Made by a program: the position numbers and the translations under genes. Below the pieces are notes generated by a model. The model worked only from the letters and a program-made list of their open reading frames with translations. It made no database searches and was not told where the DNA came from. 50,006 bases of DNA from an uncultured Candidatus Saccharibacteria bacterium (GTDB lineage Bacteria > Patescibacteriota > Minisyncoccia > Phycocordibacterales > UBA9973), in contig CAYVSW010000001.1 in the NCBI GenBank assembly GCA_964454285.1, forward strand, positions 1-50,006, in the 5' to 3' direction. Shown here piece by piece: positions 11,169 through 27,945 of the stretch (positions within the stretch are counted from its first letter, which is position 1; every line of letters starts with the position of its first letter).

Positions 11169-14100
11169 ATGCCTAAGAAAGCAGTTACTTTTTTAAAATC
11201 ATTTGCTAGTGTACTCACAATTTTCAGTCTTTTATTAACTCCTGTAAGTCTTGCGTTTGCGCAAGAAGTACCAAAAATTGAAGTTATTTCTTCTGAAGAA
11301 CTTCAAACAGATATATCAACCCCTATATTTGATACAGGAAATACAGTTGATATAACAGCAGAAACACTGACTGATGAAATAAAAACTCTTTCAGATCCAA
11401 ATAAATATGACAATGATTATTTAGATAAAGCATATCTTGATCCTAATAGTCCCTTTTATGATCCAGAACATAAAGAACCCGAGGATATTACCCAAAGTAA
11501 TGACGACACAACAAAAGATTCTGATAAACAAATAGCTTCAAGAAGTGCCACTGTTAGTCAGAATACTTTAATTTTAAACAGCAATACACAACGCGACACT
11601 ATTCGCCCAGAAATTGATCAAACTACTGGTGCGCTTGTATATAACTATCCTATAGAGACACCTGACGGTATTAATGGTTTAAACCCAAAATTAAGACTCA
11701 TTTACAATTCTCAGAATACAAAAAATGATTCTGTATATGGATATGGATGGTCAAGTAATATTCCTTATATTGAACGAATAAATAAGCATGGTACAGATCA
11801 GCTTTATACAGGAACTTATGACGATTATGTATCGTCAACTTTTGGTGAGCTTGTAAAAAACACCAGTACTCAGTATGTTCCAAAGTCAGCATCAGATATT
11901 GTTAACTTTTCTTTTAATAGTAATGTTTGGACATATACTGATAAACAAGGAACTGTTTATACTTATGGTGGGACATCGGCTTCTCGCCAAGATGATCCAG
12001 GAAACTCATCACACATTTCTAAGTGGATGTTGAGTTCAATAACTGACTCAGATGGGAATAGTATTACCTATACCTATTTGAAGGATCAGGGTCAGATATA
12101 TCCACAAATAATTAATTATGGAATCTATGAACTTGGTTTTAATCTCCAAGCACGTACTGATGTTACTGATAGTTATGCAAAAGGATTTTTAGTAAATACA
12201 AGATTTGTTCTTGGTGGAATTTCTTTGCGTAAGGTAACAAGTCCAACTTCTGCACCAACTACACAAGCGAACATGCTAGTTGTTGGAGGAGGCGGTGGTG
12301 GAGGAGCTGGAGGATCTAATAGAGGGCATTATGGAGGAGGGGGTGCAGGTGGATATAAAGCGTTTACTAATCAAGTGATTGTTCCTGCAACAGCATATCC
12401 AATTGTAATTGGCGATGGTGGTAATGGAAATTATAATGGACAGGGATCAAATGGAGGTAATACAACATTTAATAATATTACTGCAACAGGCGGTGGTGGT
12501 GGAGCGACTTATAATTCAAATGGTAGTAATGGTGGATCTGGCGGCGGCGGAGGTTCAGGTATTGGAGGAAACGCAAATCTGTATGAAGGTAATGATGGTG
12601 GAGCAGGTGCTACATATGCAGGTGGTGGCGGCGGAGGTAGTGGTTCTACGGGTAGTAGTGGTAGTGGTTCTGGTGGAACAGGTGGTACTGGTACGCTAAA
12701 TTCAATAAATGGATCTTCTGTTTATTACGCAGCAGGTGGCGGCGGCGGAGCACGAACTGGCGGCGGTGGAACGGGAGGTACTGGCGGTGGTGGAAATGGT
12801 GGATCTACTGGCCCCGGAGGATCTGCTACAGGGTATGGATCAGGTGGAGGTGGTGCTGGTTGGTATAATTATTCTGGTGGAAATGGTAGTTCTGGAATTG
12901 TGATTATTTCATATAAGACAGATGGTAGTGATGGAATTGATTCTTCATTATCTACAGGTGGAACAAAAACTACTTCTGGTTCTTATACTATTCATACATT
13001 CACAAGTAATGGCACATTAAATCTTATCCCAATTGCTCCAAGTGGATCAACCCTTCTTAAAAATTATGCAATTACATATACAACAGGACATAATGGTGTA
13101 CGAGCAGTACTTTCTTCAATTACTCCAAGTGCATATGATATAAATAATACCCTTACTACATTACCTTCGACTTCATTTACATATAACAAAGCGTCTTCAG
13201 GTGTTGCAACATATAGTTCAAGTCCTTCAATTTCTGGAATGTTCCCGGGAACTATAAATAACGGAGTTGTTCTTGGTGATGTAAATGGAGATGCCTATAC
13301 CGATATTATCAAATCATATGATTACTATGGGTATAGTAATGTAGGAAATTTTACTGATCACGCAGTTTATACGTTCAACCCAGTAACAGATACCTATAGT
13401 ACAAGTTCTTATACTATACCTACTGATATAATTAATTTTATACAAAATGCAGGTTCAAAATATGATGGCGGAACTCGAGTAGTTGATCTCGATGGTAATA
13501 TGGCTCCAGACCTTGTCAGAACTCCATATTACAATCCAACCAATAGTACTGCTTCCGCTGAACAGCATAATGGAACGGGATGGACTCATTTAACAAGTGG
13601 TTCTCCTTCGTATTATCCACCATATGCATCAAACCCGTTTTATACAGTATTCTCTGGTGATTTCAATGGCGATGGATTAACTGATTACATGCAGGATGTA
13701 CAAGCATGGCCGGCCACAACACCAACTACAAGTCTGTCGGTTAACAACGGTTCTTCCTTTACTACAAGTGGATCTACGTTCACAGGAACACATACATTTA
13801 ATACAGGAGATGATAGATGGTTAATGTTTGATCTTAATGGAGACGGCTTGGATGATTTAATAAAAGCTGATACTACAATACCGTGTAGCGGAACTACAAC
13901 ATATGATCAGCAAGTATATATAAACAACGGAACAACATGGGTGCGTGATTATTCTTACCAACTTCCGCAGTACTTTACAATTTACAATATCGGTTGTTAT
14001 TCGTCGTCTCGATTACCAATAGAAATTGGTGACTTCAATGGTGATGGTCTAACTGATATTATGGATATCAACGCTCAAAGTCTCTATATCAATCAAGGTA

Positions 14101-17100
14101 AGAGTTTTAGTGTTATTGGAAACCCAGGAGTAGGATTTTATAACTCTATGGCCGGCGCGTCAGCTGCTTGTACTAATTGCTCAAACCCATATCTAATTTA
14201 CGATATTAATGCGGATGGTTCACCAGATATTATCAATAATACTGGAACTTGGATGTGGGATAACACCATAACAACACCGACTGATTTAATGTCAGCTATT
14301 ACTCTTCCAGCAGGAGGTTTAATGGCTGTGACATATCAATCAAGCCCTAAATATGAAGATGGTAGTGGAAACTCATTAAACCCAACCAATCCAGTATTTT
14401 TGCAGACAGTAAAGAGTATTGCGACAACCGATCCTGTTACAAGTACAACTACTACAACAAATTACGAATATGCAGGCGGATCATATTATTACAATACGCC
14501 ATTTGATAGAAAATTTGCTGGCTTTGAAAAAGTTACAGAAATACGTCCTGATAGTACAAAGGTTGTTAATTACCATCTCCAAGGAAATGGTACAAACAGT
14601 TCATATTATGAGTACTCAGATAATGTTGGAAAGATCGGGTATGTCTATAGAACAGATGTGCTTGATACTAGTAATGCATTAGTTTCTCGTACAACAACCA
14701 AATACGATTCAGCTAATCCTGTGACAGGCGCATACTTTGTATACCCAACACAAACAGTCAGTGAAAATAGTGGGGTCAATACTGCGAAAACATACAGCTA
14801 CAACATCACAACAGGCACACTCACAAGCGCCGTCGATTATGGAATTGTCACTGTTACCGATCCACTCACATTTACTGACACAGGCACAGACAAAAAAACA
14901 ACCAACTATACCTATGCAACCAATGGAACTATCTATAAAGTTTCAAACCAGACAACACTTGATCAATCAAGCGCAAAGGTAAATGAGACTAATCTATACT
15001 ACGACAATCAAACGCTTGGTACTGTTATAAAAGGAAATAATACTAAAACAGAGCAATGGAAGGTTGGTACTACGTATGTAAACACTCAAAAGTCATACAG
15101 TACATATGGTAATGTCCTTACTGCAACAGACGAGCGAGGAAAAGTAACTGCTTACGCATATGATAGTTATAACCTCTATCCTATAACCGTTACCGACCCA
15201 TTAACTCGAACAACTCAGTACGCCTATGACTACAACACAGGAAAGCCAACACAGATAACTGATCAAAATGGTTATATCTACCAAACATCATATGATGGTT
15301 TTGGACGAGTACTTGAGCAAAAAGTTCCTGACCTTGCGACTCCATCTACTCTCGTAACAAAGACAACATACAGCTACACTAATACCCCAAACAATGTTTC
15401 AACCTACAAGACTGATTATCTTGATGGATCAACTACAATTGATAGCTATCAGTACTTTGATAGTCTCGGAAGACTAATTCAAGATCGTAGTGAAGCCGAA
15501 GTTTCTGGTACCTTTAATGTTAAGGATGTTACTTACAACAATGTTGGACTACTACAAAGTGAATCAATACGATACACAGGAAGTGGATCTGCTCGTACAG
15601 CCCCAACAACAAATACAACACTCTATAACACCTATACCTATGATCAGCTCAATCGAATACTGACAAGTGTAAATGCTCTCGGTACAACGAGTTATGTCTA
15701 TACAGGACTCAAAACTGCGATTACTGATGCAAATGGAAAAGTGAAGAATTACTACAACGATGCCTATGGCAATTTGGTAAAGGTAGAAGAAATCAATGCT
15801 GGTTCAACATACACCACAACATATACATGGAATCTCAATAATAAACTTACCAACATCACCGATGCACTCGCTAATGTTCGAAACTTCACTTATGACGGTC
15901 TTGGACGAAGACTCACTGCACAAGATCTTCATGCCTCAGCTGATACAACATTTGGTACTTGGACATATACGTATGATGATGCAGGAAATCTCACCCAGAC
16001 GCTTGATCCAAAGAGTCAAACGGTTAACTACACCTACGACGACCTCAATCGAGTGCTTACTGAAGACTACACAGGGCAAGCCGGTATTGAAGTTACCTAC
16101 ACCTACGATGTTGGAACGGGTAATCTTGGAAAGCTCACGAGTGTTGTAAATCCTGCAAGTACGAGAGCGTACATCTATAACTCAAACGGTGGTTTGAAAC
16201 AAGAAACAGATACACTCAATTCGGTAAATTACGTAACAACATACGATTACGATCGACAAGGTAACCAAGTTACTATTACCAATCCAGATAACTCACAAGT
16301 AAAGTACACCTACAATACTGCTGGACTGCTTGAACAAGTACAAAGAAAAGAATCAACTGATGGATCGTTCATCAACGTCATTACAAATTTTGACTATAAC
16401 CCTGATGGAAAGATTGTCACAACAACAAATGCGAACAGCACAACTACAACAAATACCTATGATGCGACCAAGCTATATCGATTAACTCACAAAGTCACTA
16501 CAGGTCCAGGTGCAGGTGGTACTCCAACAACAGTATCATTCTTCCCACAAGCAGGAGACGGTATGGTCACTTCAAATGCGTCAGCAACATGGGCAACCAT
16601 ACATGATGGCACTACAGGATCTGCTGCTGCCGCTACAGCGACAACATTTAATGTTGACTCAGGTAAATCATCTTCAACAAACTACAAGATTGAGCGTGGG
16701 TTCCTTGCATTCGATACTTCTTCACTTCCAGACAATGCAGTGATTAGTAGTGCAAAACTAAAACTTATCCCTAACTCAAAATTAAATAATGATAACGATG
16801 GAGATGATTGGATAACGGTAACTCAAGGTACCCAAGCAAGCCCTACAACACTCGGAACTGCTGATTACAACAAAGCAGGTCTAGCAACACTTCCTGTAGA
16901 AGGCATCTACAATACAGAGCGAAAAGATATCACTAACATAACTACAGGATTGTATCTTGCATTCAATTTGAACCCAACAGGTAAAACATGGATCTCTACG
17001 ACAGGGTCAACGTTACTTGGTCTTCGTGAAGGACACGATGCTATTAACAGTGCATTTACCGGTACTTCTGGTCAGTATGATCAAGTGATATTTAGATCAG

Positions 17101-18689
17101 GAGAATATACTGGCACCACAAGTGACCCAGTACTTGAAGTTACTTACTACACCACCACTCCTGCTCCTACAACAATCCAAGATCTTACCTATACCTATGA
17201 CAACGTCGGCAATATCACTCAAATAGTTGACGCGTCAGGTACCGATACTGCAAAGACTATTGCATACAGCTATGATGATCTCTACAGACTACTCTCTGCT
17301 ACCATCACAGGAGCTGTAAATGGGGATAACAGTACCAAGACATATATCTACAACGCGATTGGTAACATGCTTACTTCTGACGCAGGTACCTATACCTATG
17401 CAGGTACGGGTTATGCGAACCCACACGCTGTCACAGGGCTCGCTGGGTCAACCTATACCTACGACAATAGTGGAAACCTCACAGGAGACGGTACATGGAC
17501 ATATACCTGGGATTACAACAACCAGCTTCTCCAGAGCTCAAAGAGTGGAGTCACAAGCTCATATACCTACGATGCTAAAGGGCAGAGAGTTAAACAAGTC
17601 TCTCCAACATTTGGTACTGTCTATTATCCAACTCTTTCCTATAGTACAGATGGCACCACACCAACGAAACAAATAATGGTAGGAGACATATCTATAGGAA
17701 CAGTGAAAGGTACTGGTGCAAGTGCTGTTATGTACTATAACCATGCAGATCAATTGCAAAGTACAAACATCGTCACAAACCAATCTGGTCAAATGGTTGA
17801 GCTCATGGATTATCAACCGTATGGAGCTATGAGAATAGATTGGCAGTACAATAACAACTTTGATCAGTCTAAAAAATACATCAACAGAGAATACGATAGA
17901 GACAGCCAGCTTCTGTATCTTCAAGCGAGGTATATGAATCCAGGTATTGCGAAGTTCTTGAGTCAGGATCCAACACATTTGTCTATAGGAAATCCGAGCG
18001 CTGTTCAATCTTTGACTGGTAAGGATATGAAGATATATCTTTCTGATCCACAACAATTCAATTCTTATGCATATGCTCGAAACAATCCTATAGTTAATAG
18101 TGACCCAACGGGCAACGCAACATATATATGGAATAATGGTGCCGGAATGTCAGGAATTGATACTTGGGATACGAATACTTACTATCAATCTAGTGACCGA
18201 GCATTACTTCAAAAAAATGCTGTTGAAATGAGTTCAGCGGGTAATTACGCAAACCTCGGTGCATTTTATGATCGTGTACGCAATGGTGCACAGTGGGATT
18301 ATAAGAATCAGGATCGAGCCTATTATTTCTATGGAAGTGATCTTGTTGATAAAGAAACATTTGGAAATAGAAATTATGGGTACACTGGTACAGCAGCGGG
18401 TTTTGGGAAGACATTACTAAAAAGTGCTGCGGGTTATGCCCAAGTACGATCAGGTAATGCTCAATTAAAAGATGTAAGAACATTTTTTGACGATCCAAAG
18501 GATACGGCTAATATCCAGATTGGAATTTTGTCCTACAATAATGGCAACAGAGTAACTCCTGCGAGTGGGTTACAGATAGGTAAGCAGACTACAGTAAATA
18601 GTAAGGTTCTAAATTCGGTTTATCGACAGTTTCAAAGTATACAAAAAAAGATTAGTAACCTTGCTAAGAAATTAGGAAAATCAAATTAA
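11169..18689 (+). CDS. Giant secreted RHS/YD-repeat polymorphic toxin, Tc-toxin B/C fusion-like. Order: signal peptide, SpvB-like N-domain, Gly-rich insert, FG-GAP/VCBS repeats, RHS shell with an inserted domain, Rhs core, C-terminal toxin tip.
   Basis: Signal peptide MPKKAVTFLKSFASVLTIFSLLLTPVSLAFA/QE. SpvB-like motif TGALVYNYPIETPDGINGLNPKLRLIYNSQ...GYGWS. Six D-x-[ND]-x-D-G-x-x-D repeats (GDVNGDAYTDII ... YDINADGSPDII). Dozens of YD repeats (YxYDxxGxL). Core YLQARYMNPGIAKFLSQDP...NSYAYARNNPIVNSDPTGN. ATG 11169 is preferred to GTG 11127. Confidence 0.9.
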   Translation: MPKKAVTFLKSFASVLTIFSLLLTPVSLAFAQEVPKIEVISSEELQTDISTPIFDTGNTVDITAETLTDEIKTLSDPNKYDNDYLDKAYLDPNSPFYDPEHKEPEDITQSNDDTTKDSDKQIASRSATVSQNTLILNSNTQRDTIRPEIDQTTGALVYNYPIETPDGINGLNPKLRLIYNSQNTKNDSVYGYGWSSNIPYIERINKHGTDQLYTGTYDDYVSSTFGELVKNTSTQYVPKSASDIVNFSFNSNVWTYTDKQGTVYTYGGTSASRQDDPGNSSHISKWMLSSITDSDGNSITYTYLKDQGQIYPQIINYGIYELGFNLQARTDVTDSYAKGFLVNTRFVLGGISLRKVTSPTSAPTTQANMLVVGGGGGGGAGGSNRGHYGGGGAGGYKAFTNQVIVPATAYPIVIGDGGNGNYNGQGSNGGNTTFNNITATGGGGGATYNSNGSNGGSGGGGGSGIGGNANLYEGNDGGAGATYAGGGGGGSGSTGSSGSGSGGTGGTGTLNSINGSSVYYAAGGGGGARTGGGGTGGTGGGGNGGSTGPGGSATGYGSGGGGAGWYNYSGGNGSSGIVIISYKTDGSDGIDSSLSTGGTKTTSGSYTIHTFTSNGTLNLIPIAPSGSTLLKNYAITYTTGHNGVRAVLSSITPSAYDINNTLTTLPSTSFTYNKASSGVATYSSSPSISGMFPGTINNGVVLGDVNGDAYTDIIKSYDYYGYSNVGNFTDHAVYTFNPVTDTYSTSSYTIPTDIINFIQNAGSKYDGGTRVVDLDGNMAPDLVRTPYYNPTNSTASAEQHNGTGWTHLTSGSPSYYPPYASNPFYTVFSGDFNGDGLTDYMQDVQAWPATTPTTSLSVNNGSSFTTSGSTFTGTHTFNTGDDRWLMFDLNGDGLDDLIKADTTIPCSGTTTYDQQVYINNGTTWVRDYSYQLPQYFTIYNIGCYSSSRLPIEIGDFNGDGLTDIMDINAQSLYINQGKSFSVIGNPGVGFYNSMAGASAACTNCSNPYLIYDINADGSPDIINNTGTWMWDNTITTPTDLMSAITLPAGGLMAVTYQSSPKYEDGSGNSLNPTNPVFLQTVKSIATTDPVTSTTTTTNYEYAGGSYYYNTPFDRKFAGFEKVTEIRPDSTKVVNYHLQGNGTNSSYYEYSDNVGKIGYVYRTDVLDTSNALVSRTTTKYDSANPVTGAYFVYPTQTVSENSGVNTAKTYSYNITTGTLTSAVDYGIVTVTDPLTFTDTGTDKKTTNYTYATNGTIYKVSNQTTLDQSSAKVNETNLYYDNQTLGTVIKGNNTKTEQWKVGTTYVNTQKSYSTYGNVLTATDERGKVTAYAYDSYNLYPITVTDPLTRTTQYAYDYNTGKPTQITDQNGYIYQTSYDGFGRVLEQKVPDLATPSTLVTKTTYSYTNTPNNVSTYKTDYLDGSTTIDSYQYFDSLGRLIQDRSEAEVSGTFNVKDVTYNNVGLLQSESIRYTGSGSARTAPTTNTTLYNTYTYDQLNRILTSVNALGTTSYVYTGLKTAITDANGKVKNYYNDAYGNLVKVEEINAGSTYTTTYTWNLNNKLTNITDALANVRNFTYDGLGRRLTAQDLHASADTTFGTWTYTYDDAGNLTQTLDPKSQTVNYTYDDLNRVLTEDYTGQAGIEVTYTYDVGTGNLGKLTSVVNPASTRAYIYNSNGGLKQETDTLNSVNYVTTYDYDRQGNQVTITNPDNSQVKYTYNTAGLLEQVQRKESTDGSFINVITNFDYNPDGKIVTTTNANSTTTTNTYDATKLYRLTHKVTTGPGAGGTPTTVSFFPQAGDGMVTSNASATWATIHDGTTGSAAAATATTFNVDSGKSSSTNYKIERGFLAFDTSSLPDNAVISSAKLKLIPNSKLNNDNDGDDWITVTQGTQASPTTLGTADYNKAGLATLPVEGIYNTERKDITNITTGLYLAFNLNPTGKTWISTTGSTLLGLREGHDAINSAFTGTSGQYDQVIFRSGEYTGTTSDPVLEVTYYTTTPAPTTIQDLTYTYDNVGNITQIVDASGTDTAKTIAYSYDDLYRLLSATITGAVNGDNSTKTYIYNAIGNMLTSDAGTYTYAGTGYANPHAVTGLAGSTYTYDNSGNLTGDGTWTYTWDYNNQLLQSSKSGVTSSYTYDAKGQRVKQVSPTFGTVYYPTLSYSTDGTTPTKQIMVGDISIGTVKGTGASAVMYYNHADQLQSTNIVTNQSGQMVELMDYQPYGAMRIDWQYNNNFDQSKKYINREYDRDSQLLYLQARYMNPGIAKFLSQDPTHLSIGNPSAVQSLTGKDMKIYLSDPQQFNSYAYARNNPIVNSDPTGNATYIWNNGAGMSGIDTWDTNTYYQSSDRALLQKNAVEMSSAGNYANLGAFYDRVRNGAQWDYKNQDRAYYFYGSDLVDKETFGNRNYGYTGTAAGFGKTLLKSAAGYAQVRSGNAQLKDVRTFFDDPKDTANIQIGILSYNNGNRVTPASGLQIGKQTTVNSKVLNSVYRQFQSIQKKISNLAKKLGKSN
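17515..17572 (+). repeat. 58-nt segment of the main rhs gene repeated at the 5' junction of the downstream orphan
   Basis: Matches 19320-19377 with 2 mismatches; both encode NNQLLQSSKSGVTSSYTYD. Confidence 0.9.
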
Positions 18690-18695
18690 ATCAAA

Positions 18696-19259
18696 ATGAA
18701 AAAAATATCTAAAAAAATAATATTAATAAGTGGGTTAGTGTTAATAATTGCCATTATTGTTGGGCGTGTTTACTTTAATGGTGGTAATGCAAAAGATTTA
18801 AGAATTGTTAATTCGTTGGAAAAAAATGTTCTTCCTTACATTCAACAAAATAAAGTATCTTTTTACTTTAATATGGATTGGTGTAAAGGTCTTCAGTATG
18901 ACTCTCGTTCAGTAGTAGAGATTTCTAGTTCAAGTAATAATTCGTCGTGCTTAAACAATGCTTCAACATTTTCTGATTCTGACCGTTCAATTTTTAATGA
19001 AATTGGTAAAAAATTGAGCTTTGTTTCTGTAGGAAAATTTAGAGAAATTGATACGGAATATCCAATAAGTTATAGGGGTGAACAAGTAAATATCCCTCAT
19101 GAATCAATAGGTTTAGCTTTCCATACGGATTGTTCTTTCTGTAGAATCCGCTATGTTTACTGGCCACAGTATACCGAGCTACCGCCCAGTATTGATGGAG
19201 AAATTAAATACATTCCTATCAATGAAAACTGGTATAGAGTTGAGCAAGATTGGAATTAA
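18696..19259 (+). CDS. Putative cognate immunity protein (N-terminal membrane anchor)
   Basis: Starts 7 nt after the rhs stop. TM segment KIILISGLVLIIAIIVG. Call rests on position; no family recognised. Confidence 0.55.
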   Translation: MKKISKKIILISGLVLIIAIIVGRVYFNGGNAKDLRIVNSLEKNVLPYIQQNKVSFYFNMDWCKGLQYDSRSVVEISSSSNNSSCLNNASTFSDSDRSIFNEIGKKLSFVSVGKFREIDTEYPISYRGEQVNIPHESIGLAFHTDCSFCRIRYVYWPQYTELPPSIDGEIKYIPINENWYRVEQDWN

Positions 19260-19270
19260 CTCCACTATAA

Positions 19271-19924
19271 GTCAACATTCTTTTAAGAAAAAAGTGTTAC
19301 AATCACACTAGTTCTTTAAACAACAACCAGCTCCTCCAGAGCTCAAAGAGTGGAGTCACAAGTTCATATACCTACGACGATCTCAACCGACTTCTGACTG
19401 CAACAATCACCTCAGTACCAACAGGACAGACTACCTATACACAAACCTATGTATATAATGCAATTGGAAATATAACCTCTGGTCCAGTTGGAACATATGT
19501 TTATAACGGTTCAAGTGGTTCAAACTGGGCTAACCCTCATGCAGCGACATCTATAAATGGTGTTACAAATACCTACGACAAGGATGGAAACAATACAGGA
19601 GACGGAACACTCACAAATACATGGAACTATAAAGACCAACTTACAAGAACTGTAAAAGGTGCAACAACAATTGACTATCTATATGACTATACTGGAGACC
19701 GTTCATCATATACTGACGGCACTACAACTACTGATTATGCCAACAAGTACTATAACTATGATGGTGCAAAGAAAGTTAAACAAATATTTGCTGGCAATCA
19801 ACTAGTTGGAACAATAGAGACAGTAGGAGCTACAGTATCTCCATACTATGTTCATACAGATACTGTTCTCGGTTCAAATGTAATATCAGATGGAACTGGT
19901 GCAAAGAATCAACTCCTTGACTAT
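19271..19924 (+). pseudogene. Start-less in-frame 5' part of the orphan Rhs cassette (YD repeats)
   Basis: Same frame as 19925-20767 and open back to TAA 19268-19270. No ATG, GTG or TTG codon in 218 codons. Encodes YD repeats paralogous to main-gene residues around nt 17275-17600. Confidence 0.75.
19320..19377 (+). repeat. Orphan-side copy of the 58-nt rhs homology
   Basis: See 17515-17572. Confidence 0.9.
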
Positions 19925-20767
19925 ATGCCGTTTGGAAAAGTGAGAATTAATCAGCAAGCAACCAGTTTCAACGAGAAAAATCAATTTATAGGACAGGAGT
20001 ATGACGAAGACACACAATTATCCTATCTTAACGCTCGTTACTATAATGGGGCTAGGGGTCAGTTTATAAGCCAAGATCCAGTATTCTGGGAGATTGGACA
20101 GTCTAAAGAAGGAATGAGTGCTCTATCTGATCCTCAATCAATGAATAGTTATTCCTATGCAGGAAATAATCCGATTAAAAATTCGGATCCTGACGGAAGA
20201 TGGTATAAGGAAGTTCTAACTGGTCAGCAATCCTGGTCTAGTTTCTCGGGAGAAGTAGGTCAAGCAACCCAATACATGGGTAGTGGGTGGCAGACAGCAA
20301 TGGATCATCCTGTTGCAGCAGGGGCAGCAGTTGGAGTTGGATCAGGATTAGCGGCATATGGAGCCGCCGCAGGACTTACTGCTCTTAGTACTCAATATCT
20401 TGGTGGAGCAGGTACGGCATGTGTAGCACTATGCAATCAAAATGGACAAAAACTAGTTGAGCAAGGAATATCAAATCTACAACAGTTACCAAGGGTGGTC
20501 ACTGCAACAGAAAAAATGGTAGAGCGGGGTCCAAATAAGGATATAGTTGGAATTAATAATTTCCTACAACAAGCACAAAAGGGTACAGCTTACTTGGATA
20601 ACAAAACAGGTAATATAAATATCTTTTCTAAGATAGGGGATAGTGCTAGGTACACAAGAACTACTCTTAATCCAGAGGGGAATAAAATTATTTCAGCTGG
20701 TATTAATCAGGCAAGAAATGTTATTAATGGTATTTCAAACGGACGCTTTACTAAGATTACTAAATAA
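19925..20767 (+). CDS. RHS repeat-associated core plus an alternative C-terminal toxin tip (orphan module; ORF as callable from its first ATG)
   Basis: Core motifs QEYDEDTQLSYLNARYYNGARGQFISQDP...NSYSYAGNNPIKNSDPDGR, followed by a 189-aa tip unrelated to the main tip and containing a Gly/Ala-rich hydrophobic stretch VAAGAAVGVGSGLAAYGAAAGLTAL. Confidence 0.8.
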   Translation: MPFGKVRINQQATSFNEKNQFIGQEYDEDTQLSYLNARYYNGARGQFISQDPVFWEIGQSKEGMSALSDPQSMNSYSYAGNNPIKNSDPDGRWYKEVLTGQQSWSSFSGEVGQATQYMGSGWQTAMDHPVAAGAAVGVGSGLAAYGAAAGLTALSTQYLGGAGTACVALCNQNGQKLVEQGISNLQQLPRVVTATEKMVERGPNKDIVGINNFLQQAQKGTAYLDNKTGNINIFSKIGDSARYTRTTLNPEGNKIISAGINQARNVINGISNGRFTKITK

Positions 20768-20784
20768 TATAAAATTAAAACAAC

Positions 20785-21078
20785 ATGAAAAACTTTATTG
20801 ACCTCATAGAATCATTCATAGAAGGAAAAATTGACTTCAAAGAATTTGATAAAAATTGGCAAAAATTATATATAGGCTCATCAGATAAAGGTGAACTCTA
20901 TGAGGCTTTGTCAGAATCAGAGAAGGATTTTCTTGATGAGATACATGATAAAGAGGATTTAGCTACCAAAGATGAAAAGGAATTACAGGATTTGAAAAAA
21001 TACAACTTTATTTCTGTAAAGGAATTTAAAGAGTGGCTAAAAGATTATAAACAAAAGAATATTGAAATCTGGAAATAG
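20785..21078 (+). CDS. Putative immunity protein for the orphan toxin (small acidic helical protein)
   Basis: Lies 17 nt after the orphan stop. The N-terminal pattern LIESFIEGKIDFKEFDKNWQKLY recalls colicin-type (ImmD-like) immunity proteins, from memory. Confidence 0.55.
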   Translation: MKNFIDLIESFIEGKIDFKEFDKNWQKLYIGSSDKGELYEALSESEKDFLDEIHDKEDLATKDEKELQDLKKYNFISVKEFKEWLKDYKQKNIEIWK

Positions 21079-21082
21079 CTTT

Positions 21083-21319
21083 TTAGTCTTCATTCGATTT
21101 GGTTAGTTGACGTTCTGCTTTATTAATCTCTTTCTCTATTGAAAAACTGATTTTTTCTTGTTCTTGAGAGTCAGAATTTTCGGTTGTTTTTAGTTGTAAT
21201 GGTACTGAGCCTTTCAAAATAACTTTTCCATGGTTGTAAATAATTTCTTCAACGAAGTCTAAGACAAATCTTCGCTTGTTATCAAAAGTATTACACTTAT
21301 CAAATCGGGGGAATAATGA
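21083..21319 (-). pseudogene. Possible remnant of the C-terminal end of a large serine recombinase
   Basis: Minus-frame open stretch without a start: ...FDNKRRFVLDFVEEIIYNHGKVILKGSVPLQLKTTENS...ERQLTKSNED*. The pattern F(E/D)xKRxxLxxx(V/I)xxIxxxxxGxVxIxGxIP is one I recall from the tails of large serine recombinases. Confidence 0.3.
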
Positions 21320-21354
21320 TTATTATTACTATTAAATTTTTGAGTTCATAAGAT

Positions 21355-21600
21355 ATGGATACAGGATATTGGCAACCATTATCAGGTTTAGTCATAGGTT
21401 TATTATTAGTAATCCTATTCTGTCTTCTTTATACGCGCTGGAGAAAAAAGCCTGTTCAATGGATTACAAAGCATATATTTCGAAGCCAGCTCATGAGCGA
21501 AAAGTCTGCAACTGGTCTTTATAATGTAATGATAAGTTTTATACCAGTGATAGGTGTAATATGGATTTTTTCAGCACTTCTGTATTTGAGGGTTCTGTAA
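21355..21600 (+). CDS. Hypothetical small membrane protein (2 TM)
   Basis: 81-aa ORF with two hydrophobic helices. Confidence 0.4.
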   Translation: MDTGYWQPLSGLVIGLLLVILFCLLYTRWRKKPVQWITKHIFRSQLMSEKSATGLYNVMISFIPVIGVIWIFSALLYLRVL

Positions 21601-21803
21601 AAAGTGAAAAAATAAGCACTAATGATAGTTGGGTAGTAAATACAAGTATAAGTGATGTATATGATTTCAATCCTGTAAATCCTCAAACATACAAGGGTGC
21701 AATTACAAAATTACCCGCTGGACAGGCACATAAAGATCAAGGCAGTGGTATTTTAAGTAATTACAATGTAAATATTCAATTTAGTGATAAAATTAACAAA
21801 TAG
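21561..21803 (+). CDS. Hypothetical 80-aa protein, possibly the remnant tip of a third toxin module
   Basis: Short ORF (frame opens only at 21525), followed 2 nt later by a membrane-anchored ORF in the same arrangement as the two toxin/immunity pairs upstream. Confidence 0.3.
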   Translation: MDFFSTSVFEGSVKSEKISTNDSWVVNTSISDVYDFNPVNPQTYKGAITKLPAGQAHKDQGSGILSNYNVNIQFSDKINK

Positions 21804-21805
21804 TT

Positions 21806-22321
21806 ATGAAAAATAAAAAGATACCATATGTATTAATAATACCTTTACTGATAATAGCAATTTTTGCTTTTAGTTATTATTATTTTATCAGAATTCCAAA
21901 TAAAAAAATTGCAGAAAGATGTATTCAATATGATCGTGAATGGGCGAATTTGGAAGATTGCTATGGTTTAATTTCACTTCGTTATGGTTGGGATATTGAT
22001 TATTATTACTTATTGGATCACATTCATGATTACGAAATTGCGAGAATCTATAACCTTGATCAATACATTTACGAAAACAATAAAATTTTCGTGATCAATC
22101 GCAAGACCATAGAAAACAGCTCATCTAACGGAATTAAGACTACCTATTATCAGGAACTGTTTCAGAACGGTAAGTTGTCAGATAATCCCTATAGTGAAAT
22201 TTCAGACATACCAACTTTCCTGGTTGTAGATACTGTTTCTGGTGAAGTACAAGCATATAAAAATATCACTGATGTTCCGAGTGATCAACAGAGCTATTTT
22301 ACCAAAATCAATAACCAGTAG
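21806..22321 (+). CDS. Hypothetical membrane-anchored protein (candidate orphan immunity protein)
   Basis: N-terminal TM segment IPYVLIIPLLIIAIFAFSYYYFI, then a Tyr/Asp-rich soluble domain. Confidence 0.5.
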   Translation: MKNKKIPYVLIIPLLIIAIFAFSYYYFIRIPNKKIAERCIQYDREWANLEDCYGLISLRYGWDIDYYYLLDHIHDYEIARIYNLDQYIYENNKIFVINRKTIENSSSNGIKTTYYQELFQNGKLSDNPYSEISDIPTFLVVDTVSGEVQAYKNITDVPSDQQSYFTKINNQ

Positions 22322-22572
22322 AAAACTAATGAAAGTAAAAATACTACTAAGAAAGATGTTATTAATGTCATGAATACCAAGTCTATAAAAGAAGTAAATA
22401 GCAATAAGATTGTAAGAAAACGTTTAGCTAGAATTTTATCTAGAGAATGTTTTCGCGATATGAAGAAATAGATTTTATGGAGATGACCCAAGAGATCAGC
22501 CTGATATTATGAGGCGTATTAATTTATATAGAAATATATAAAGTTATTTATAAAAAAATATTAATCACAATA

Positions 22573-22839
22573 ATGGATGAAAATACTATCATTAGAAGAA
22601 TAGAAGATACTGTACACCAAGTAGTGCACGAACAAACTGATCATCTCGGGCGAGGTCGTGTTAAGCGTACATTCACAAACGACCTCGCGCATAAACTCAA
22701 ACTGCTATTTGAGACAGGTGACATCGCTGTTGATCCTTTTTATAACCGGCATGTGCAAGCGACAAAACGGTTAGACGGTAAGGTTATTGAACTGGATATC
22801 GCTAATGATTTAAATATTTACTATTATAATATGCACTAG
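22573..22839 (+). CDS. Hypothetical protein, possibly a truncated fragment
   Basis: 88-aa ORF that ends abruptly after ...GKVIELDIANDL. No downstream continuation found. Confidence 0.35.
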   Translation: MDENTIIRRIEDTVHQVVHEQTDHLGRGRVKRTFTNDLAHKLKLLFETGDIAVDPFYNRHVQATKRLDGKVIELDIANDLNIYYYNMH

Positions 22840-22874
22840 AAATTTGATTAAAAAACTATGTTATACTCCCTCCT

Positions 22875-23201
22875 ATGAAACAAATTCTAGTACTACATGG
22901 AGGAGATAGTTTTGGGACAGAGGAGGAATATATTTCTTTTTTGAAGAATTTTGAGATAGAAAATCTCGATTATTTCAAAAGTAAACGATGGAAAGAAAAC
23001 CTACAGGCAGATCTGGGGCCAGACTTTGAAGTTATTGCGTCGCGGATGCCAAATGCATTTAATGCGCGCTATGAGGAGTGGAAGATCTGGTTTGAAAAGA
23101 TCCTCCCTTTGATGGACGATAGATGTGTACTCCTCGGGCATTCGCTCGGAGGGACTTTTCTTGCAAAAACAATAGAAAAACGAATTTCTTATCAAAAATA
23201 A
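22875..23201 (+). pseudogene. Truncated alpha/beta serine hydrolase (YdeN/RBBP9-like); only the N-terminal half is present
   Basis: Nucleophile elbow LLGHSLGG is present, but the ORF stops 17 codons later, so the Asp/His half is missing. A full-length family member lies at 27024-27578. Confidence 0.6.
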
Positions 23202-23332
23202 AGAATGGTAATAGAGTGTCACTTTTGTCACTTTTTGAGGTGCTCAAGATACGTTGATATGATATAGTAAGAATTATTGGAATAGCCTTGCAGTGCAATG
23301 AATCAAAAGGTTCTAGCTCAAGGACGCCAGCA

Positions 23333-23372
23333 CATACAAAAAAACATAGCAAACGCTATGTTTTTTTGTATG
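23333..23372. terminator. Perfect 18-bp hairpin (AAAC loop)
   Basis: catacaaaaaaacatagc-aaac-gctatgtttttttgtatg. Confidence 0.6.
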
Positions 23373-23571
23373 CCTCTGGCTGTTTAGGACGAGAAAGGCG
23401 TAGCCGTTCTTGCGGGGCAAGAATATAGGCGAGGCGGGGTCGCGAACACTTTATATTTTTGGAGTTTTACGAACAAAAATATTTAGTGATTTGTGACCGA
23501 GTCCCTGTCCCGCAGAACGCAAAAATACCTACTAAAAGTATACTTTCTTTACTTTTCGAGTACATTAGTTT

Positions 23572-23594
23572 ATAATGCAAGTTACTTGCATTAT
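23572..23594. promoter_or_regulatory. Perfect 11-1-11 palindrome; candidate Fur/Zur-family operator overlapping the -10 box and both candidate start codons
   Basis: ATAATGCAAGT-T-ACTTGCATTAT. The tataat at 23571-23576 overlaps its left arm. Confidence 0.65.
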
Positions 23595-23922
23595 GAGAAC
23601 CAATGTATACAAAGAACAGATATTAAGCCTACTCAGAAAAAAACATCTTCTGACTATCGCTGAAATTCACAAAGCAATCCCAGACGCTGATTATTCGACG
23701 ATTTTTCGCAATGTCGAACAATTGCTTTCTGATAAACAAATCAAAAGAATTATGATTGACAGCAAGTCAATTGCATACGAATCAGCTCATGAGAGCCACG
23801 ATCACTTTATTTGTAATGACTGTGGAAAAGTTGAAGAAATTCACGTTCCCCACACCTCAATCAAAGGTCGAAAGATTGACGATATTACCGTGCGAGGAAG
23901 TTGTAATGAGTGCGATAAATAA
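23593..23922 (+). CDS. zur: Fur-family metalloregulator, probably Zur
   Basis: HESHDHFICNDCGKVEEI (HxHxxCxxC) plus a C-terminal CNEC. Sits in an operon with a COG0523 GTPase. Alternative ATG at 23575. Confidence 0.8.
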   Translation: MRTNVYKEQILSLLRKKHLLTIAEIHKAIPDADYSTIFRNVEQLLSDKQIKRIMIDSKSIAYESAHESHDHFICNDCGKVEEIHVPHTSIKGRKIDDITVRGSCNECDK

Positions 23923-25006
23923 TATGAATAAAACAACCCTTAAAAAACAAATACCCGTTACTGTACTTTCTGGATTTCTTGGAGCGGGTAAAACAACCGT
24001 CTTAAATTACATACTTGCAAATCGACAAGGACTTAAGGTTGCGGTGATAGTAAACGATATGTCAGAAGTGAATATTGATGTAGAGTTGGTAAAAAACAAT
24101 GAGGTAGCCCTTGATCGCACAGAAGAAAAATTGATCGAGATGTCTAATGGCTGTATCTGCTGTACTCTTCGAGAAGATCTTCTAAAAGAGGTATCAAAGC
24201 TAGCATCAGAAGGAAAATTTGATGCAATCTTCATCGAATCAAGTGGAATTTCAGAACCACTTCCTGTTGCTGAAACATTCACGTTTGAAGATGAGAATGG
24301 AAAAATGCTTATGGATATTGCCCGACTCGATACTATGGTGACTGTCGTAGATGCAAAACATTTTCTGTTGAACTACGAAAATGACAAAAATCTCTCTGAT
24401 GAAAAGATTGGTGTATCAGATGACGATACTCGAACCATAGTTCACCTCCTTACCGATCAGGTCGAATTTGCCGATGTTATTTTACTTTCAAAAGTTGATA
24501 TCACCCCAAAAGAAGAAGTTGCAAAGATTAAAGCTATCATCAAAACACTTAATCCTGGAGCAAAGATATACGAGATTGAAAAAGGAAAAATTGAATTAGA
24601 CAAGATACTCAACACCGGTCTATTCACACTTAAAAACGCATCAAACAACGCTGGTTGGCTCAAGGAAATGCGAGGAGAACACATTCCAGAAACGGAGGAA
24701 TATGGAATCTCGAGTTTTGTATTCAAAGCCAATCGTCCATTTTCTCATACAAAGCTCCTGGATATTCTTAACGGTAACAAATTGAAGGGTGTAGTCAGAT
24801 CAAAAGGTTTCGCATGGACAGACGAAAGACCGAACATGGCACTAATGTGGAGTCATGCAGGCAATATTATCAACCTTGATCCCTATGGATACTGGAATAA
24901 GAGAAAAGACGGTTCATTAGATGCAGAGCAGAAAATTGTCTTCATCGGCATCGAAATGGACAAAGAATATATATTAGATGAACTTAATCAAGCACTTATT
25001 GCATAA
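23906..25006 (+). CDS. COG0523-family (CobW/YjiA/ZigA-like) metallochaperone GTPase
   Basis: Walker A GFLGAGKTT, metal motif GCICCT, ESSGISEP, SKVD, CobW C-terminal domain. ATG 23906 (GAGGAAG 8 nt upstream) overlaps the zur end. Alternative ATG 23924. Confidence 0.88.
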   Translation: MSAINNMNKTTLKKQIPVTVLSGFLGAGKTTVLNYILANRQGLKVAVIVNDMSEVNIDVELVKNNEVALDRTEEKLIEMSNGCICCTLREDLLKEVSKLASEGKFDAIFIESSGISEPLPVAETFTFEDENGKMLMDIARLDTMVTVVDAKHFLLNYENDKNLSDEKIGVSDDDTRTIVHLLTDQVEFADVILLSKVDITPKEEVAKIKAIIKTLNPGAKIYEIEKGKIELDKILNTGLFTLKNASNNAGWLKEMRGEHIPETEEYGISSFVFKANRPFSHTKLLDILNGNKLKGVVRSKGFAWTDERPNMALMWSHAGNIINLDPYGYWNKRKDGSLDAEQKIVFIGIEMDKEYILDELNQALIA

Positions 25007-25010
25007 AAAT

Positions 25011-25859
25011 ATGATAATTGGAATTTTAGGAAAAGGAGGTGTTGGAAAATCAACAATTTCATCACAAATTGCACTCTATCTTGCAAGTCAAAAGAAGAAA
25101 ATTCTTGCAATTGATGCTGATTATAATATGGATTTGGTATTCAATATTACAGGTGGAAATATTCCTGAGCAGTTGCCCTATTTTGGAACACAAAAATCAG
25201 CTATTAAATTTTTCCTCTCCCTTGAGAAGGGTACAAAATTTTCTGATGGGGTGCTTGGTTTTAATGAAGCACAATTTCATTTCTCAGAACCATCAGTTGA
25301 TAGTTTTACTGAATCAGTAGCTACTCCCATCAAGAACCATCTTTCAGTAATTGTTTGTGGACCAGAAACAGAAGACATTTTATACGGCCAAGGTTGTGGG
25401 CATGCATTATCAGCTCCTCTTAAGCTCTATTTACCACTACTGCATGTTGCGCCAAATTGTCATGTGGTGATCGATGAAAAGGCAGGTTCTGATGGTGCTA
25501 ATAGTGGAATCATTTCAGGGTGTGACATAGTTTATATTGTTACAGATCCATCACTTCATGGAACAAAAACAGCACTTCAGATTGCTCGCCTTGCAGAATT
25601 TTTTGAAACACCTTATAAATTTATTGCAAATAAGGTTCAAACACCTGAAGATCTTACGTACATTTCAGAACGATTAAATGTGGATGTTCATTTATCATTT
25701 ATATTTGATTCTGAACTTAGTAAAAATCCAGGACAAGTTTCTGCTAAAAACGTTAAATTCTTTGAGCAAATAGATAATCTTACAATTGACTCAGATAATC
25801 AAAATAGATTAGACCGCTCTCAGCGCAAATTCAAAATTGCTCAAGAAAGATACTCTTAG
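25011..25859 (+). CDS. ParA/MinD/CooC-family P-loop ATPase (deviant Walker A)
   Basis: ILGKGGVGKST, AIDADYNMDL. ATG 25011 is 4 nt after the upstream stop. Confidence 0.75.
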   Translation: MIIGILGKGGVGKSTISSQIALYLASQKKKILAIDADYNMDLVFNITGGNIPEQLPYFGTQKSAIKFFLSLEKGTKFSDGVLGFNEAQFHFSEPSVDSFTESVATPIKNHLSVIVCGPETEDILYGQGCGHALSAPLKLYLPLLHVAPNCHVVIDEKAGSDGANSGIISGCDIVYIVTDPSLHGTKTALQIARLAEFFETPYKFIANKVQTPEDLTYISERLNVDVHLSFIFDSELSKNPGQVSAKNVKFFEQIDNLTIDSDNQNRLDRSQRKFKIAQERYS

Positions 25860-25953
25860 TTTGTAATCACCTCGCATGTTTTCTTCTCGAAAGGAATCAT
25901 GTATGGTGACTATAATCACCGTGTTCTTTTTTCACAATTTAAAAATTTTAATC

Positions 25954-26370
25954 ATGAATTGCACAGACGCAAGAATGGTGTGGTCTCACCCAGAAGGACC
26001 AATCAAAGGAGTACAACAAGTATTTCCTGAAGCATGGAAACGTATCCATGCAATTGCTCATCATTTTGCAGACAAGAAAACAAATCCGTATAACGATTTG
26101 GTTCAAGCGGATGCAAAGGAGATGGGAGTTAATACTCCGTTTTATGTTGAACATGCGCTGGATGGTGATCCTGTTGCAGAGCAAATCCACGGAATCCTTG
26201 GAGATGTAGCAATGGGAAAAGTGATATCCAAATGGATGTCTGACCATTGTAAGGCACCCATGGTGCTTGCTAATGTATGCTGTAATGGTTGCACCTCCTA
26301 TCGACCAGATATGCCAGATGAGGAAATCAACAAAATGCAGCTTGCTGCAATCAAAAACAATCCTATATAG
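25954..26370 (+). CDS. Hypothetical His/Cys-containing protein (CCNGC motif), last gene of the Zur-linked cluster
   Basis: 138-aa ORF from ATG 25954 (the track start 25876 adds a hydrophobic, unlikely extension). Contains AIAHHF, DHC and VCCNGC. Confidence 0.5.
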   Translation: MNCTDARMVWSHPEGPIKGVQQVFPEAWKRIHAIAHHFADKKTNPYNDLVQADAKEMGVNTPFYVEHALDGDPVAEQIHGILGDVAMGKVISKWMSDHCKAPMVLANVCCNGCTSYRPDMPDEEINKMQLAAIKNNPI

Positions 26371-26403
26371 GTAATTGTTGTTATTTTGATAGCAAGCAAA
26401 AAC

Positions 26404-26431
26404 CCGGACAAAAACAATGTCCGGTTTTTTA
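26404..26431 (+). terminator. Rho-independent terminator
   Basis: ccggaca-aaaacaa-tgtccgg followed by tttttt. Confidence 0.65.
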
Positions 26432-26466
26432 TTTTTTTGACCTATTATTTCAAATCTCTTGTTTGA

Positions 26467-26649
26467 TCTAAAAAAGCAAAGAATGTCATATTCATATGCC
26501 TTCGAGGAAACACAAGTAGACTAGCAACTTATAAAGCAGAACAACTCGGCATCAAGGCAATAAATCTCAAGGGTGGAGATGCGGAATGGAGCAGGCTGAA
26601 TTTGCCTCGAATAATATCAATGTCCTGTATATTGAAGTACGACCTTTAA
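26467..26649 (+). pseudogene. Rhodanese-domain remnant (C-terminal about 45 aa, no start codon)
   Basis: Frame 1 reads KNVIFICLRGNTSRLATYKAEQLGIKAINLKGGDAEWSRLNLP, which is an active-site loop C-x-R-G-x-x-S followed by the L.GG...W end. An in-frame stop lies directly upstream at 26464-26466. Confidence 0.55.
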
Positions 26650-26669
26650 ATTAGATAATTTAAAACGAT

Positions 26670-26700
26670 AAAAACACCTCTCATTACGAGAGGTGTTTTT
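26670..26700. terminator. Bidirectional terminator hairpin (13-bp stem)
   Basis: aaaaacacctctc-attac-gagaggtgttttt, downstream of tRNA-Gln copy 2 on the minus strand. Confidence 0.7.
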
Positions 26701-26738
26701 ATCTTAAAACTAGCTATCTTTGAGCTAGCTCAAGTTTG

Positions 26739-26809
26739 CTGGGGTGCAAGGACTCGAACCTCAATAGACGGTACCAGAAACCGTAGTCCTACCATTAGAC
26801 GACACCCCA
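26739..26809 (-). tRNA. tRNA-Gln (CUG), copy 2, inverted relative to copy 1
   Basis: The reverse complement matches 10873-10943 at 69 of 71 positions. The two differences are at tRNA positions 26 and 44. CCA is not encoded. Confidence 0.9.
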
Positions 26810-26819
26810 ATATATTTTT

Positions 26820-26847
26820 ATTATATGCGAAGAATGCTTTTTTTCAA
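26820..26847 (-). promoter_or_regulatory. Promoter of tRNA-Gln copy 2 (TTGAAA-16-TATAAT on the minus strand)
   Basis: Minus strand reads ttgaaaaaaagcattcttcgcatataat. It shares the opening ttgaaaaaaag with the copy-1 promoter. Confidence 0.5.
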
Positions 26848-27023
26848 GTGTGAAAATAAATATTCCCCAAAAGGGGAATATAATTTTATGCCATCTAGCC
26901 ACTACTTAATCTTATTGTTTTAGAACATTTAGTAAACTAGCAAGGAGGTTCCTTGTTAAGACTAAAAAAAAGACAGTTTCGAGCTGTCCTTTTTATTTCA
27001 CCTTAATTTAGTATACTTATCAT

Positions 27024-27578: not shown

Positions 27579-27593
27579 TTCTATTGCTTCATC

Positions 27594-27911: not shown

Positions 27912-27913
27912 AT

Positions 27914-27945
27914 AAAAAGCCTAGACTATATAGTCTAGGCTTTTT
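27914..27945. terminator. Bidirectional terminator, perfect 15-bp palindrome arms
   Basis: aaaaagcctagacta-ta-tagtctaggcttttt, between convergent genes. Confidence 0.8.

Follow-up and report, generated by a model that had tools for sequence, protein, structure and literature searches.

We examined a stretch of 50,006 nucleotides (nt), hereafter the window, which comprises positions 1 to 50,006 of contig CAYVSW010000001.1 (GenBank assembly GCA_964454285.1) from an uncultured bacterium named Candidatus Saccharibacteria. All coordinates are those of the window; other loci and contigs are cited by numbers beginning with L and proteins by numbers beginning with P. At 19320-21078 lies what is very probably an orphan Rhs C-terminal cassette, downstream of a full-length, Sec-type Rhs gene and its candidate immunity gene imm1, in a member of the Patescibacteria. 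The host assignment follows from TypA (4296-6107), which shares 79-93% identity with proteins named Candidatus Pacebacteria, Paceibacterota or Nomurabacteria; by these relatives the host is placed in the Patescibacteria. A preliminary description of the locus, made from the sequence, had spoken of a lineage very different from the enterobacteria, and the TypA relatives agree with this. The features at the locus, all on the + strand, are as follows.

11127-18689, +, main Rhs gene, 2520 amino acids (aa) from GTG 11127.
17515-17572, +, first copy of a 58-nt repeat (block B, NNQLLQSSKSGVTSSYTYD; repeat family D10), within the main gene and 541 nt before its core end.
18114-18689, +, main toxin tip, after ...NSDPTGN, with the core end mapped by tblastn.
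About 18264-18542, +, Ntox44 domain (PF15607, E = 9.7e-14, residues 2380-2472).
18696-19259, +, imm1, candidate immunity protein of 187 aa whose N-terminus has a hydrophobic helix.
19260-19319, +, spacer without Rhs homology, holding TAA 19268-19270.
19320-21078, +, orphan cassette: partial YD-shell core, two-part tip and 97-aa immunity open reading frame (ORF).
19320-19377, +, second copy of the 58-nt repeat (B'), at the 5' end of the Rhs homology of the orphan and also present in contig L086.
19378-20200, +, orphan YD-shell and core (A'-B''-C'), a diverged paralogue of main-gene positions 17264-18113 at an offset of 2114.
About 19922-20197, +, Rhs-associated core domain of the orphan, ending in NSDPDGR at 20200.
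20174-21091, +, module shared horizontally, made up of the last nine core codons, the tip, imm2 and the next 13 nt.
20201-20767, +, orphan toxin tip, 188 aa (20201-20764), unrelated to the Ntox44 tip of the main gene.
20747-20775, +, promoter-like site TTTACT-17-TAAAAT, with the -10 box ending 10 nt before the imm2 ATG.
20785-21078, +, imm2, acidic protein of 97 aa and candidate immunity partner of the orphan tip.

The main gene encodes the domains expected of a large secreted Rhs protein. In Pfam we found SpvB (PF03534, E = 6.3e-17), FG-GAP_3, Gly_rich_2, seven stretches of RHS_repeat (PF05593, E = 1.2e-25) and Ntox44, and the Rhs_assc_core model TIGR03696 scored 47.3 bits against a cutoff of 32.5. 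The core boundary, of the form PxxxxDPxG[RLN], reads NNPIVNSDPTGN and the core ends with ...NSDPTGN. RHS/YD repeats, a TIGR03696 core with its boundary and a polymorphic tip are features by which Rhs/YD-repeat polymorphic toxins are recognized, and these were found. The true start of the gene is likely ATG 11169 (MPKKAVTF...; N-terminus MPKKAVTFLKSF), and the N-terminus looks like a Sec signal peptide, with a hydrophobic stretch ending AFA-QE. No PAAR domain appeared in the Pfam scan of the 2520-aa protein, and no families of type VI secretion (T6SS) appeared in the neighbouring ORFs that were scanned. Because of this set of domains and the lack of PAAR, we regard the protein as a TcB/TcC-like, Sec-type Rhs toxin and not a T6SS effector. 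A TcA-like partner gene was not noticed beside the locus, where no dedicated search was made for one. The gene imm1 starts 7 nt past the stop of the main gene and belongs to no Pfam family. Two further features of the main protein are an insertion of Gly_rich_2 (PF21722) at 12250-12900 (residues 377-597) and, in the repeat region, at about 16650-17150 (residues ~1840-2006), a DNRLRE-like domain whose score of 30.1 bits stays below the cutoff of 34 (NF033679).

Downstream of imm1, the frame that carries ORF 19925-20767 is open as far back as 19271, is closed upstream by the in-frame TAA at 19268-19270 and ends with a stop codon at 20767. This frame differs from that of imm1, whose end is at 19259. 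The earliest ATG, GTG or TTG in it is ATG 19925, which is preceded by 218 codons with no start. The preliminary description had claimed both the opening back to 19271 and the 218 start-less codons, and both claims stand; there is no start further upstream, where the TAA shuts the frame. When compared with the Rhs part of the main gene, where start codons occur at 2.2% per codon, the absence of any in 218 codons has a Poisson probability of ~0.008, which is suggestive only. The frame is otherwise uninterrupted, with 498 codons free of stops and frameshifts in a region of 37% G+C. Since it has no start codon, signal peptide or shell of its own, the orphan toxin presumably cannot be made or delivered alone.

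The public annotation nonetheless places a 280-aa ORF (P0001) at ATG 19925, a start picked by gene callers, and this fragment could be expressed alone as an intracellular toxin–antitoxin-like module with imm2. A Salmonella orphan Rhs is reported to be such a module (PMC7043789). The 280-aa product would keep the core motifs and the DPDGR boundary, and imm2 lies directly downstream of it. However, only GACTAT abuts ATG 19925, a promoter scan shows no site there, and upstream of both the orphan frame and ATG 19925 we saw nothing comparable to the promoter boxes of this genome. In addition, the Met at 19925 sits inside the conserved core motif LDY(M/Y/F)P(F/Y)G, where Tyr or Phe is usual in homologues, and it is therefore an ordinary internal residue. 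Solo expression is, in our judgement, quite improbable. Exact-protein look-ups of P0001 and of a 293-aa neighbour returned nothing on record.

The orphan encodes a well-preserved end of an Rhs core. TIGR03696 scored 65.6 bits against the cutoff of 32.5 (residues 218-309), and the core boundary reads NNPIKNSDPDGR. Across 35 homologues R241, G248, F250 and D254 are invariant and D291, P292 and G294 nearly invariant. Pfam gave no match to the orphan fragment at E <= 0.01; the core aligns over its whole length with proteins carrying PF05593/PF25023 TEN_YD-shell. Its nearest relatives are P0002 and P0003 (63-65% aa identity), and what the homologues have in common with the orphan is the core and not the tip, with a coverage of 56-63% for most matches.

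The tip that follows has two parts. The N-terminal part (~95 aa, 20201-20485; WYKEVLTGQQSWSSF...AAGAAVGVGSGLAAYGAAAG...GGAGTAC) is a glycine-zipper or Ala-Gly-rich hydrophobic helical region that no Pfam family covers. It recurs before at least two unrelated toxin domains, including Tox-REase-7 (PF15649) in P0130, P0048 and P0135, which share only this part with the orphan tip. It behaves like a shared pre-toxin or entry module, apparently specific to these Patescibacteria Rhs tips. Of the C-terminal part, about 90 aa are common to a smaller set of proteins, and the alpha+beta domain takes up about 70 aa (roughly 20552-20764). AlphaFold2 predicted a confident alpha+beta domain of a helix and four strands (pLDDT >90) at tip residues ~130-188 and a low-confidence, poorly defined and helical N-terminal half. 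The product of imm2, which begins shortly after the tip, contains 25 D+E versus 18 K+R. We considered imm2 as a member of Colicin_immun and rejected this; the Pfam match was weak and sub-threshold and a sequence search of the PDB gave it no support. The preliminary description had recognized an orphan core, toxin and immunity cassette here, with a glycine-zipper-like stretch in the tip and a 97-aa acidic immunity-like gene, and in this it was right. Its NSDPDGR core end is likewise correct, while the tip it gave as 189 aa has 188.

The same tip and immunity gene were found on a full-length Rhs gene elsewhere. The module at 20174-21091 differs at 26 of 918 nt (97% identity) from the 3' end of a full-length Rhs gene on L001 and L002, two Logan contigs that are 99.98% identical to one another. 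Nucleotide identity between these contigs and the window is ~55% up to 20173, 97% over 20174-21091 and nil after. The L001/L002 gene runs off the contig end after more than 1302 and more than 1447 residues, and its Rhs body is only 42-45% identical to the main protein of the window. A homologue of imm2 with 95% aa identity lies directly after the same tip. Because identity steps up at 20173/20174 and the body of the gene is so diverged, the module has recently moved between distantly related genomes. These data show a tip/imm2 module that has been exchanged horizontally very recently with its breakpoint at the core end; this natural breakpoint, 20173/20174, lies away from the 58-nt block. The pairing of tip and immunity gene is conserved in L001, L010 and L024, where the latter two carry tip homologues at 40% identity followed by immunity homologues at 33-34% (L010, with a full-length Rhs, at 33%). 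Such pairing, with the substitution ratios given below, is indirect evidence that the tip would be released by autoproteolysis, act as a toxin and be neutralized by its immunity protein.

The reverse case was also found. Orphan 1 of L023 shares 60.6% identity with the main tip of the window (Ntox44) taken together with its core end, and behind this orphan lies a 187-aa ORF that is 72% identical to imm1. Together, these comparisons show cassettes that, by their sequences, interchange between orphan and full-length positions across genomes and in both directions.

A window derived from a metagenome could in principle be an assembly chimera, in which the alternative Rhs 3' ends of two strains were strung in tandem through the 58-nt sequence, repeats being classic sites of mis-joining. 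Logan contigs from three further sequencing runs (SRR10036056, SRR10036059 and SRR10036065), however, are 100% identical to the window. L086 corresponds to 18571-20641 and includes imm1, the spacer, the repeat copy and the orphan core; L003 and L004 correspond to 20370-21741. The orphan-side junction is therefore not confined to a single assembly. L086, an independent assembly of another run, crosses imm1, the spacer, B' and A' without a difference, and the adjacency of spacer and B' is thus supported by reads. Logan contigs are built with k = 31, which exceeds the longest exact run (29 nt) common to the two copies of the repeat; the copies differ at 2 positions. The architecture of a main gene plus orphan also recurs in 17 other loci. 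We consider a chimera exceedingly improbable. The preliminary description had let its case depend on the 58-nt match surviving re-sequencing, and the second copy is retained in L086.

With a trimmed core alignment we searched the GTDB species, each represented by one genome, and obtained 217 confirmed matches. The analysis covers the best 78 of these 217, at loci that are almost all in metagenome-assembled genomes (MAGs) of Patescibacteria. A script mapped each core end and its open frame, and genes were taken as full-length when 900-2800 codons lay upstream of the core end. In 17 of the 78 loci one to three short core-plus-tip frames lie within 10 kb downstream of a full-length gene, and a small ORF comes after each orphan frame (L023 and L049 were inspected directly). 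These orphans often have start-less stretches of 77-153 codons. We tested whether orphans are selected to lack start codons and rejected the idea, since 48 full-length genes and 48 orphans have the same pooled rate of 3.1% per codon. At the head of many orphans stands a block nearly identical to the main gene of the same locus and roughly in register with it, as in the following loci.

L023 (7431-9264), orphan head block of 494 nt, 99.8% identical to the main gene.
L013 (9266-10825), orphan head block of 719 nt, 98% identical to the main gene.
L021 (9764-10807), orphan head block of 386 nt, 96% identical to the main gene.
L049 (8408-12940), three orphans with head blocks of 226-353 nt, 96-99.6% identical to the main gene.
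L012, orphan blocks of 221 nt and 58 nt, 92-93% identical to the main gene.

The three L049 blocks all stop at one common position of the main gene. Direct repeats this long and similar are expected to be recombinationally unstable, and the persistence of these near-identical blocks suggests very recent insertion, gene conversion or selection. It might be that these blocks and the 58-nt block of the window are direct repeats that remained after cassettes of core end, tip and immunity gene had circularised and been inserted by a single (Campbell-type) crossover, in an integron-like cycle of insertion and excision driven by homology. We hold this to be rather unlikely; if it were true, the out-of-register block of the window would show that the cycle can yield Rhs shells of altered length. 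A MAG labelled Gracilibacteria (L005/L006/L030) has a homologous Rhs gene split into three consecutive ORFs of 482, 846 and 382 aa (span ~5350-10616 in L005). The split is identical in two independent assemblies and could be either a real pseudogene or the result of an alternative genetic code with UGA as sense. No paper that connects Rhs orphans with Patescibacteria or the candidate phyla radiation turned up in the literature searched.

Within the window, the sequence shared by the orphan and its main gene differs from the long blocks of the survey. The copies at 17515-17572 and 19320-19377 are identical at 56 of 58 positions (BLASTN E = 8.6e-23 in a local comparison), with exact runs of 13, 29 and 14 nt. 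Both begin at codon position 2, and because of this a crossover at the repeat would be in frame. Directly upstream of 19320 the local comparison found no similarity to the main gene. Past 19377 the orphan and the main gene run colinear at an offset of 2114, versus 1805 in the 58-nt block; a match of family D7 (17455-17528 versus 19569-19642, 76% identical) supports the offset of 2114. Position 19378 of the orphan thereby corresponds to about 17264 of the main gene, 251 nt before the start of block B, and the order of blocks is B'-A'-B''-C'-tip in the orphan as compared with A-B-C-tip in the main gene. The preliminary description had reported the 58-nt match with its 2 mismatches, to which we add that the codon phase is the same. 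It had also seen a diverged paralogue past the match (DLNRLLTATI versus DLYRLLSATI, as the translations confirm); the paralogue is real, and the distance it put at about 240 nt is 251 nt.

The junction of B' and A' (TATACCTACGA followed by CGATCTCAACCG) sits on a YxYD-DLxRL repeat junction of family D3, which has five copies and is the most repeated nucleotide motif of the main gene. A related orphan in L007, with a 63% identical core, begins within about ten codons of the same boundary. We conclude that the 58-nt block was copied recently from the main gene and joined out of register at the YxYD/DLxRL motif, and it is best read as a scar of array-building recombination rather than as a proven switch. 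Displacement, of which the preliminary description spoke, and acquisition as an orphan may both account for the cassette. Three histories fit, and the present data do not separate them: a single-crossover (Campbell) insertion of a B-C-tip1-imm1 circle into an ancestral A-B-A' gene; an incoming fragment that displaced the old end and whose right end crossed over homeologously at the YxYD motif; or repair of a break with a short piece of the main gene as the template.

An alternative is that the 58-nt block is a working RecA switch that produces a functional 2611-aa Rhs protein with the orphan tip, so that subpopulations switch toxins. Recombination between 17515-17572 and 19320-19377 would remove 1805 nt (core end, Ntox44 tip, imm1 and spacer) and leave a 2611-aa frame with no stops. 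The longest exact run in the 56/58 match, 29 nt, is close to the minimal efficient processing segment reported for RecA recombination in E. coli. The intact 498 codons of the orphan and the interchange of orphan and main positions across genomes also speak for a switch, as does the precedent of Salmonella LT2 (PMC3967940). Against it, the predicted product would have A-B followed by A'-B'', which is a tandem duplication of 103 aa of the shell, in which ANPHA-type motifs would occur twice, at 514 and 411 residues from the C-terminus. Of 52 full-length homologues, most have only one ANPHA-type motif, typically 400-450 residues from the end; the exceptions are four with two copies, at least 165 residues apart, and three with none. 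Orphans in other Patescibacteria have in-register blocks of 200-700 nt, and the tip of the window was exchanged in nature at 20174 and not at the 58-nt block. The deletion would also cost the cell imm1 and expose it to the Ntox44 toxin of its siblings. In Salmonella the loss of the immunity gene by such a deletion was solved by its prior duplication (PMC3967940). Overall we think a working switch unlikely.

The candidate immunity gene may have a promoter of its own. Most genes in this genome have a TATAAT/TATACT-like box that ends 9-13 nt before the ATG and no Shine-Dalgarno sequence (for example upstream of 3787, 8106, 8796, 10261, 39707 (-) and 45125), which suggests leaderless or near-leaderless mRNAs. 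The -10 box of imm2 has a spacing that matches that at other genes of the genome, and from this we infer that imm2 is probably transcribed from its own box and expressed independently.

Several observations weigh against our reading of 19320-21078 as an orphan cassette that serves the main gene as a reserve, and those on the repeat and its product count against a switch as well. The 58-nt block is out of register, with a shift of -282 to -309 nt, and its longest exact run is short at only 29 nt. Where orphan and main gene are in register their identity is at most 76% with exact runs of at most 13 nt; with no in-register identity longer than this, there is therefore no present substrate for a canonical swap. 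A tandem NP[HDN]A-containing block with copies ~100 residues apart, as predicted for the fusion, occurs in 0 of the 52 full-length homologues. An exact search of JGI metagenome contigs with the 27-nt core of the repeat gave 0 matches, and neither a recombinant nor an excised form was seen there. The candidate toxin domain has no match in Pfam, no sequence match in the PDB and no Foldseek match in the PDB below E = 0.4. Between the window and L001 the ratio of non-synonymous to synonymous substitution rates (dN/dS) is 0.17 for the tip and 0.13 for imm2, with mostly synonymous substitutions; these values indicate what appears to be purifying selection on both, which cannot be attributed to the orphan lineage rather than to the expressed L001 copy. 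Lastly, a scan of 18500-22500 for consensus promoters and terminators gave site counts at or below the expectation from shuffled sequence. Because the counts are not above this expectation, our statements on promoters derive from the comparison of spacing.

Some of these points would suit a different explanation, in which the orphan toxin is a decaying fossil and only imm2, as an acquired orphan immunity gene, is under selection, the intact frame reflecting a recent arrival. This overlaps with the reading we prefer. It agrees with the 218 codons without a start, the absence of in-register homology for canonical re-attachment, the divergence of only about 3% between the tip/imm2 module and L001 (which points to a recent arrival), the promoter-like -10 box of imm2 and the lack of start-codon depletion in orphans elsewhere. 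By contrast, 498 codons without stops or frameshifts at 37% G+C are not what decay predicts, the near-identical homology blocks frequent at orphans in the phylum argue for continuing recombination between orphans and main genes, and tips do move between the two positions. We give the fossil explanation a modest probability. As for an orphan cassette that can be moved, the preliminary description had held that such orphans are swappable onto the main gene. The movement of cassettes across genomes (L001/L002, L023) is in line with this; the 58-nt homology, being out of register, is possible but doubtful as the handle for swapping.

The locus lies in a variable part of the genome. A close relative, L089 (GCA_037127795.1; TypA 92% identical), is syntenic with the window up to FtsX and a single tRNA-Gln, past which it has different genes and no Rhs. 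In the window FtsX and a peptidase gene are roughly 19 kb apart, and this interval contains the 7.5-kb Rhs gene and the spare cassettes; a stretch of ~16 kb with a low G+C of 30-39% holds the Rhs locus (G+C profile, 9700-29200). Two copies of tRNA-Gln(CTG), at 10873-10946 (+) and 26738-26809 (-), are inverted, have 2 mismatches and bracket the low-G+C stretch. Because the relative carries other genes at this place and the stretch is bracketed by tRNA genes, we assign the Rhs locus to a strain-variable island; it looks like a tRNA-associated island with an unusual inverted duplication of the tRNA.

Other ORFs of the island were noted. After imm2 (21355-22321) there are an 81-aa ORF with two transmembrane segments, an 80-aa ORF (21561-21803) and an abutting 171-aa ORF (21806-22321) with an N-terminal hydrophobic helix; these resemble a further degraded pair of tip and immunity gene. 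No family matches were found for the ORFs at 21355-23201, and ORF 21806-22321 was rejected as a paralogue of imm1, to which it has no similarity. At 23575-25006 a Fur-family regulator (PF01475, E = 2.7e-13) overlaps the start of a 416-aa ORF that looks like a CobW/G3E-type GTPase, and the two may be an island-borne pair for metal homeostasis.

Orphan rhs-CT/rhsI modules have been described at rhs loci of Salmonella Typhimurium LT2 (STM0292), E. coli and Dickeya (PMC3150448, PMC3967940). The cassette in the window is like these in that the orphan shares sequence with the main gene, in that the same tips occur on full-length genes elsewhere and in its start-less frame, closed by the in-frame stop at 19268-19270. 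In LT2 the main and orphan rhs genes recombine through a region of 522 bp with 95% identity (PMC3967940). That homology is in register, whereas the homology in the window is 58 nt long and about 300 nt out of register; the surveyed Patescibacteria orphans with long in-register blocks follow the enterobacterial pattern. Unlike the T6SS-linked Rhs proteins of enterobacteria, the main protein of the window has no PAAR, a signal-peptide-like N-terminus and SpvB/FG-GAP domains. The host also differs, being a member of the Patescibacteria, and recombination between orphan and main gene is here a prediction.

Other systems resemble the locus in part. WapA/WapI of Bacillus subtilis consists of a large YD-repeat protein with an N-terminal secretion signal and a polymorphic C-terminal toxin, together with an adjacent immunity gene and no T6SS. 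By description WapA has the YD repeats, secretion signal, C-terminal toxin and immunity gene in common with the window; at the N-terminus it has wall-binding repeats, whereas the main protein of the window has SpvB, FG-GAP and a glycine-rich domain. In the TcB-TcC cocoon of Tc toxins, TcB provides SpvB and a beta-propeller and TcC the RHS shell and core with a variable tip. The succession of SpvB/FG-GAP, RHS repeats, core and variable tip is the same in the window, where it forms one polypeptide, and the related locus L005 also has TcdB_toxin_midN. We know of no Tc loci with arrays of orphan tips and immunity genes. CdiA-CT tips are made of a shared N-terminal region and a variable C-terminal toxin domain. 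In CdiA-CT/CdiI systems orphan toxin/immunity pairs lie downstream of the main gene (PMC3150448). Both the downstream orphan pairs and the two-part tips are therefore alike; CdiA, however, is a filament of two-partner secretion, whereas the window encodes an Rhs shell with no VENN motif and a shared N-terminal part of glycine-zipper, hydrophobic character.

If 19320-21078 is an orphan cassette as we propose, it could have two roles. The imm2 protein would guard the cell against neighbours that carry the same tip on a full-length Rhs, such as the L001/L002 organism. The tip, presumed silent, would be a stored alternative warhead that recombination could move onto a full-length gene, and a rare deletion of the RecA type at the 58-nt block could still join the orphan in frame to the main gene.

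The principle of orphan cassettes was already known; what is new here is two-way comparative evidence for them outside the enterobacteria. Orphan arrays of the textbook enterobacterial kind are now seen in Patescibacteria, which have very small genomes and live attached to other cells, and the survey suggests that Rhs orphan arrays and tip shuffling may be common and widespread in this group. Contact-dependent antagonism against hosts or rival epibionts is almost unstudied in these bacteria, and the movement of tips points to active toxin diversification and immunity hoarding in the Patescibacteria.

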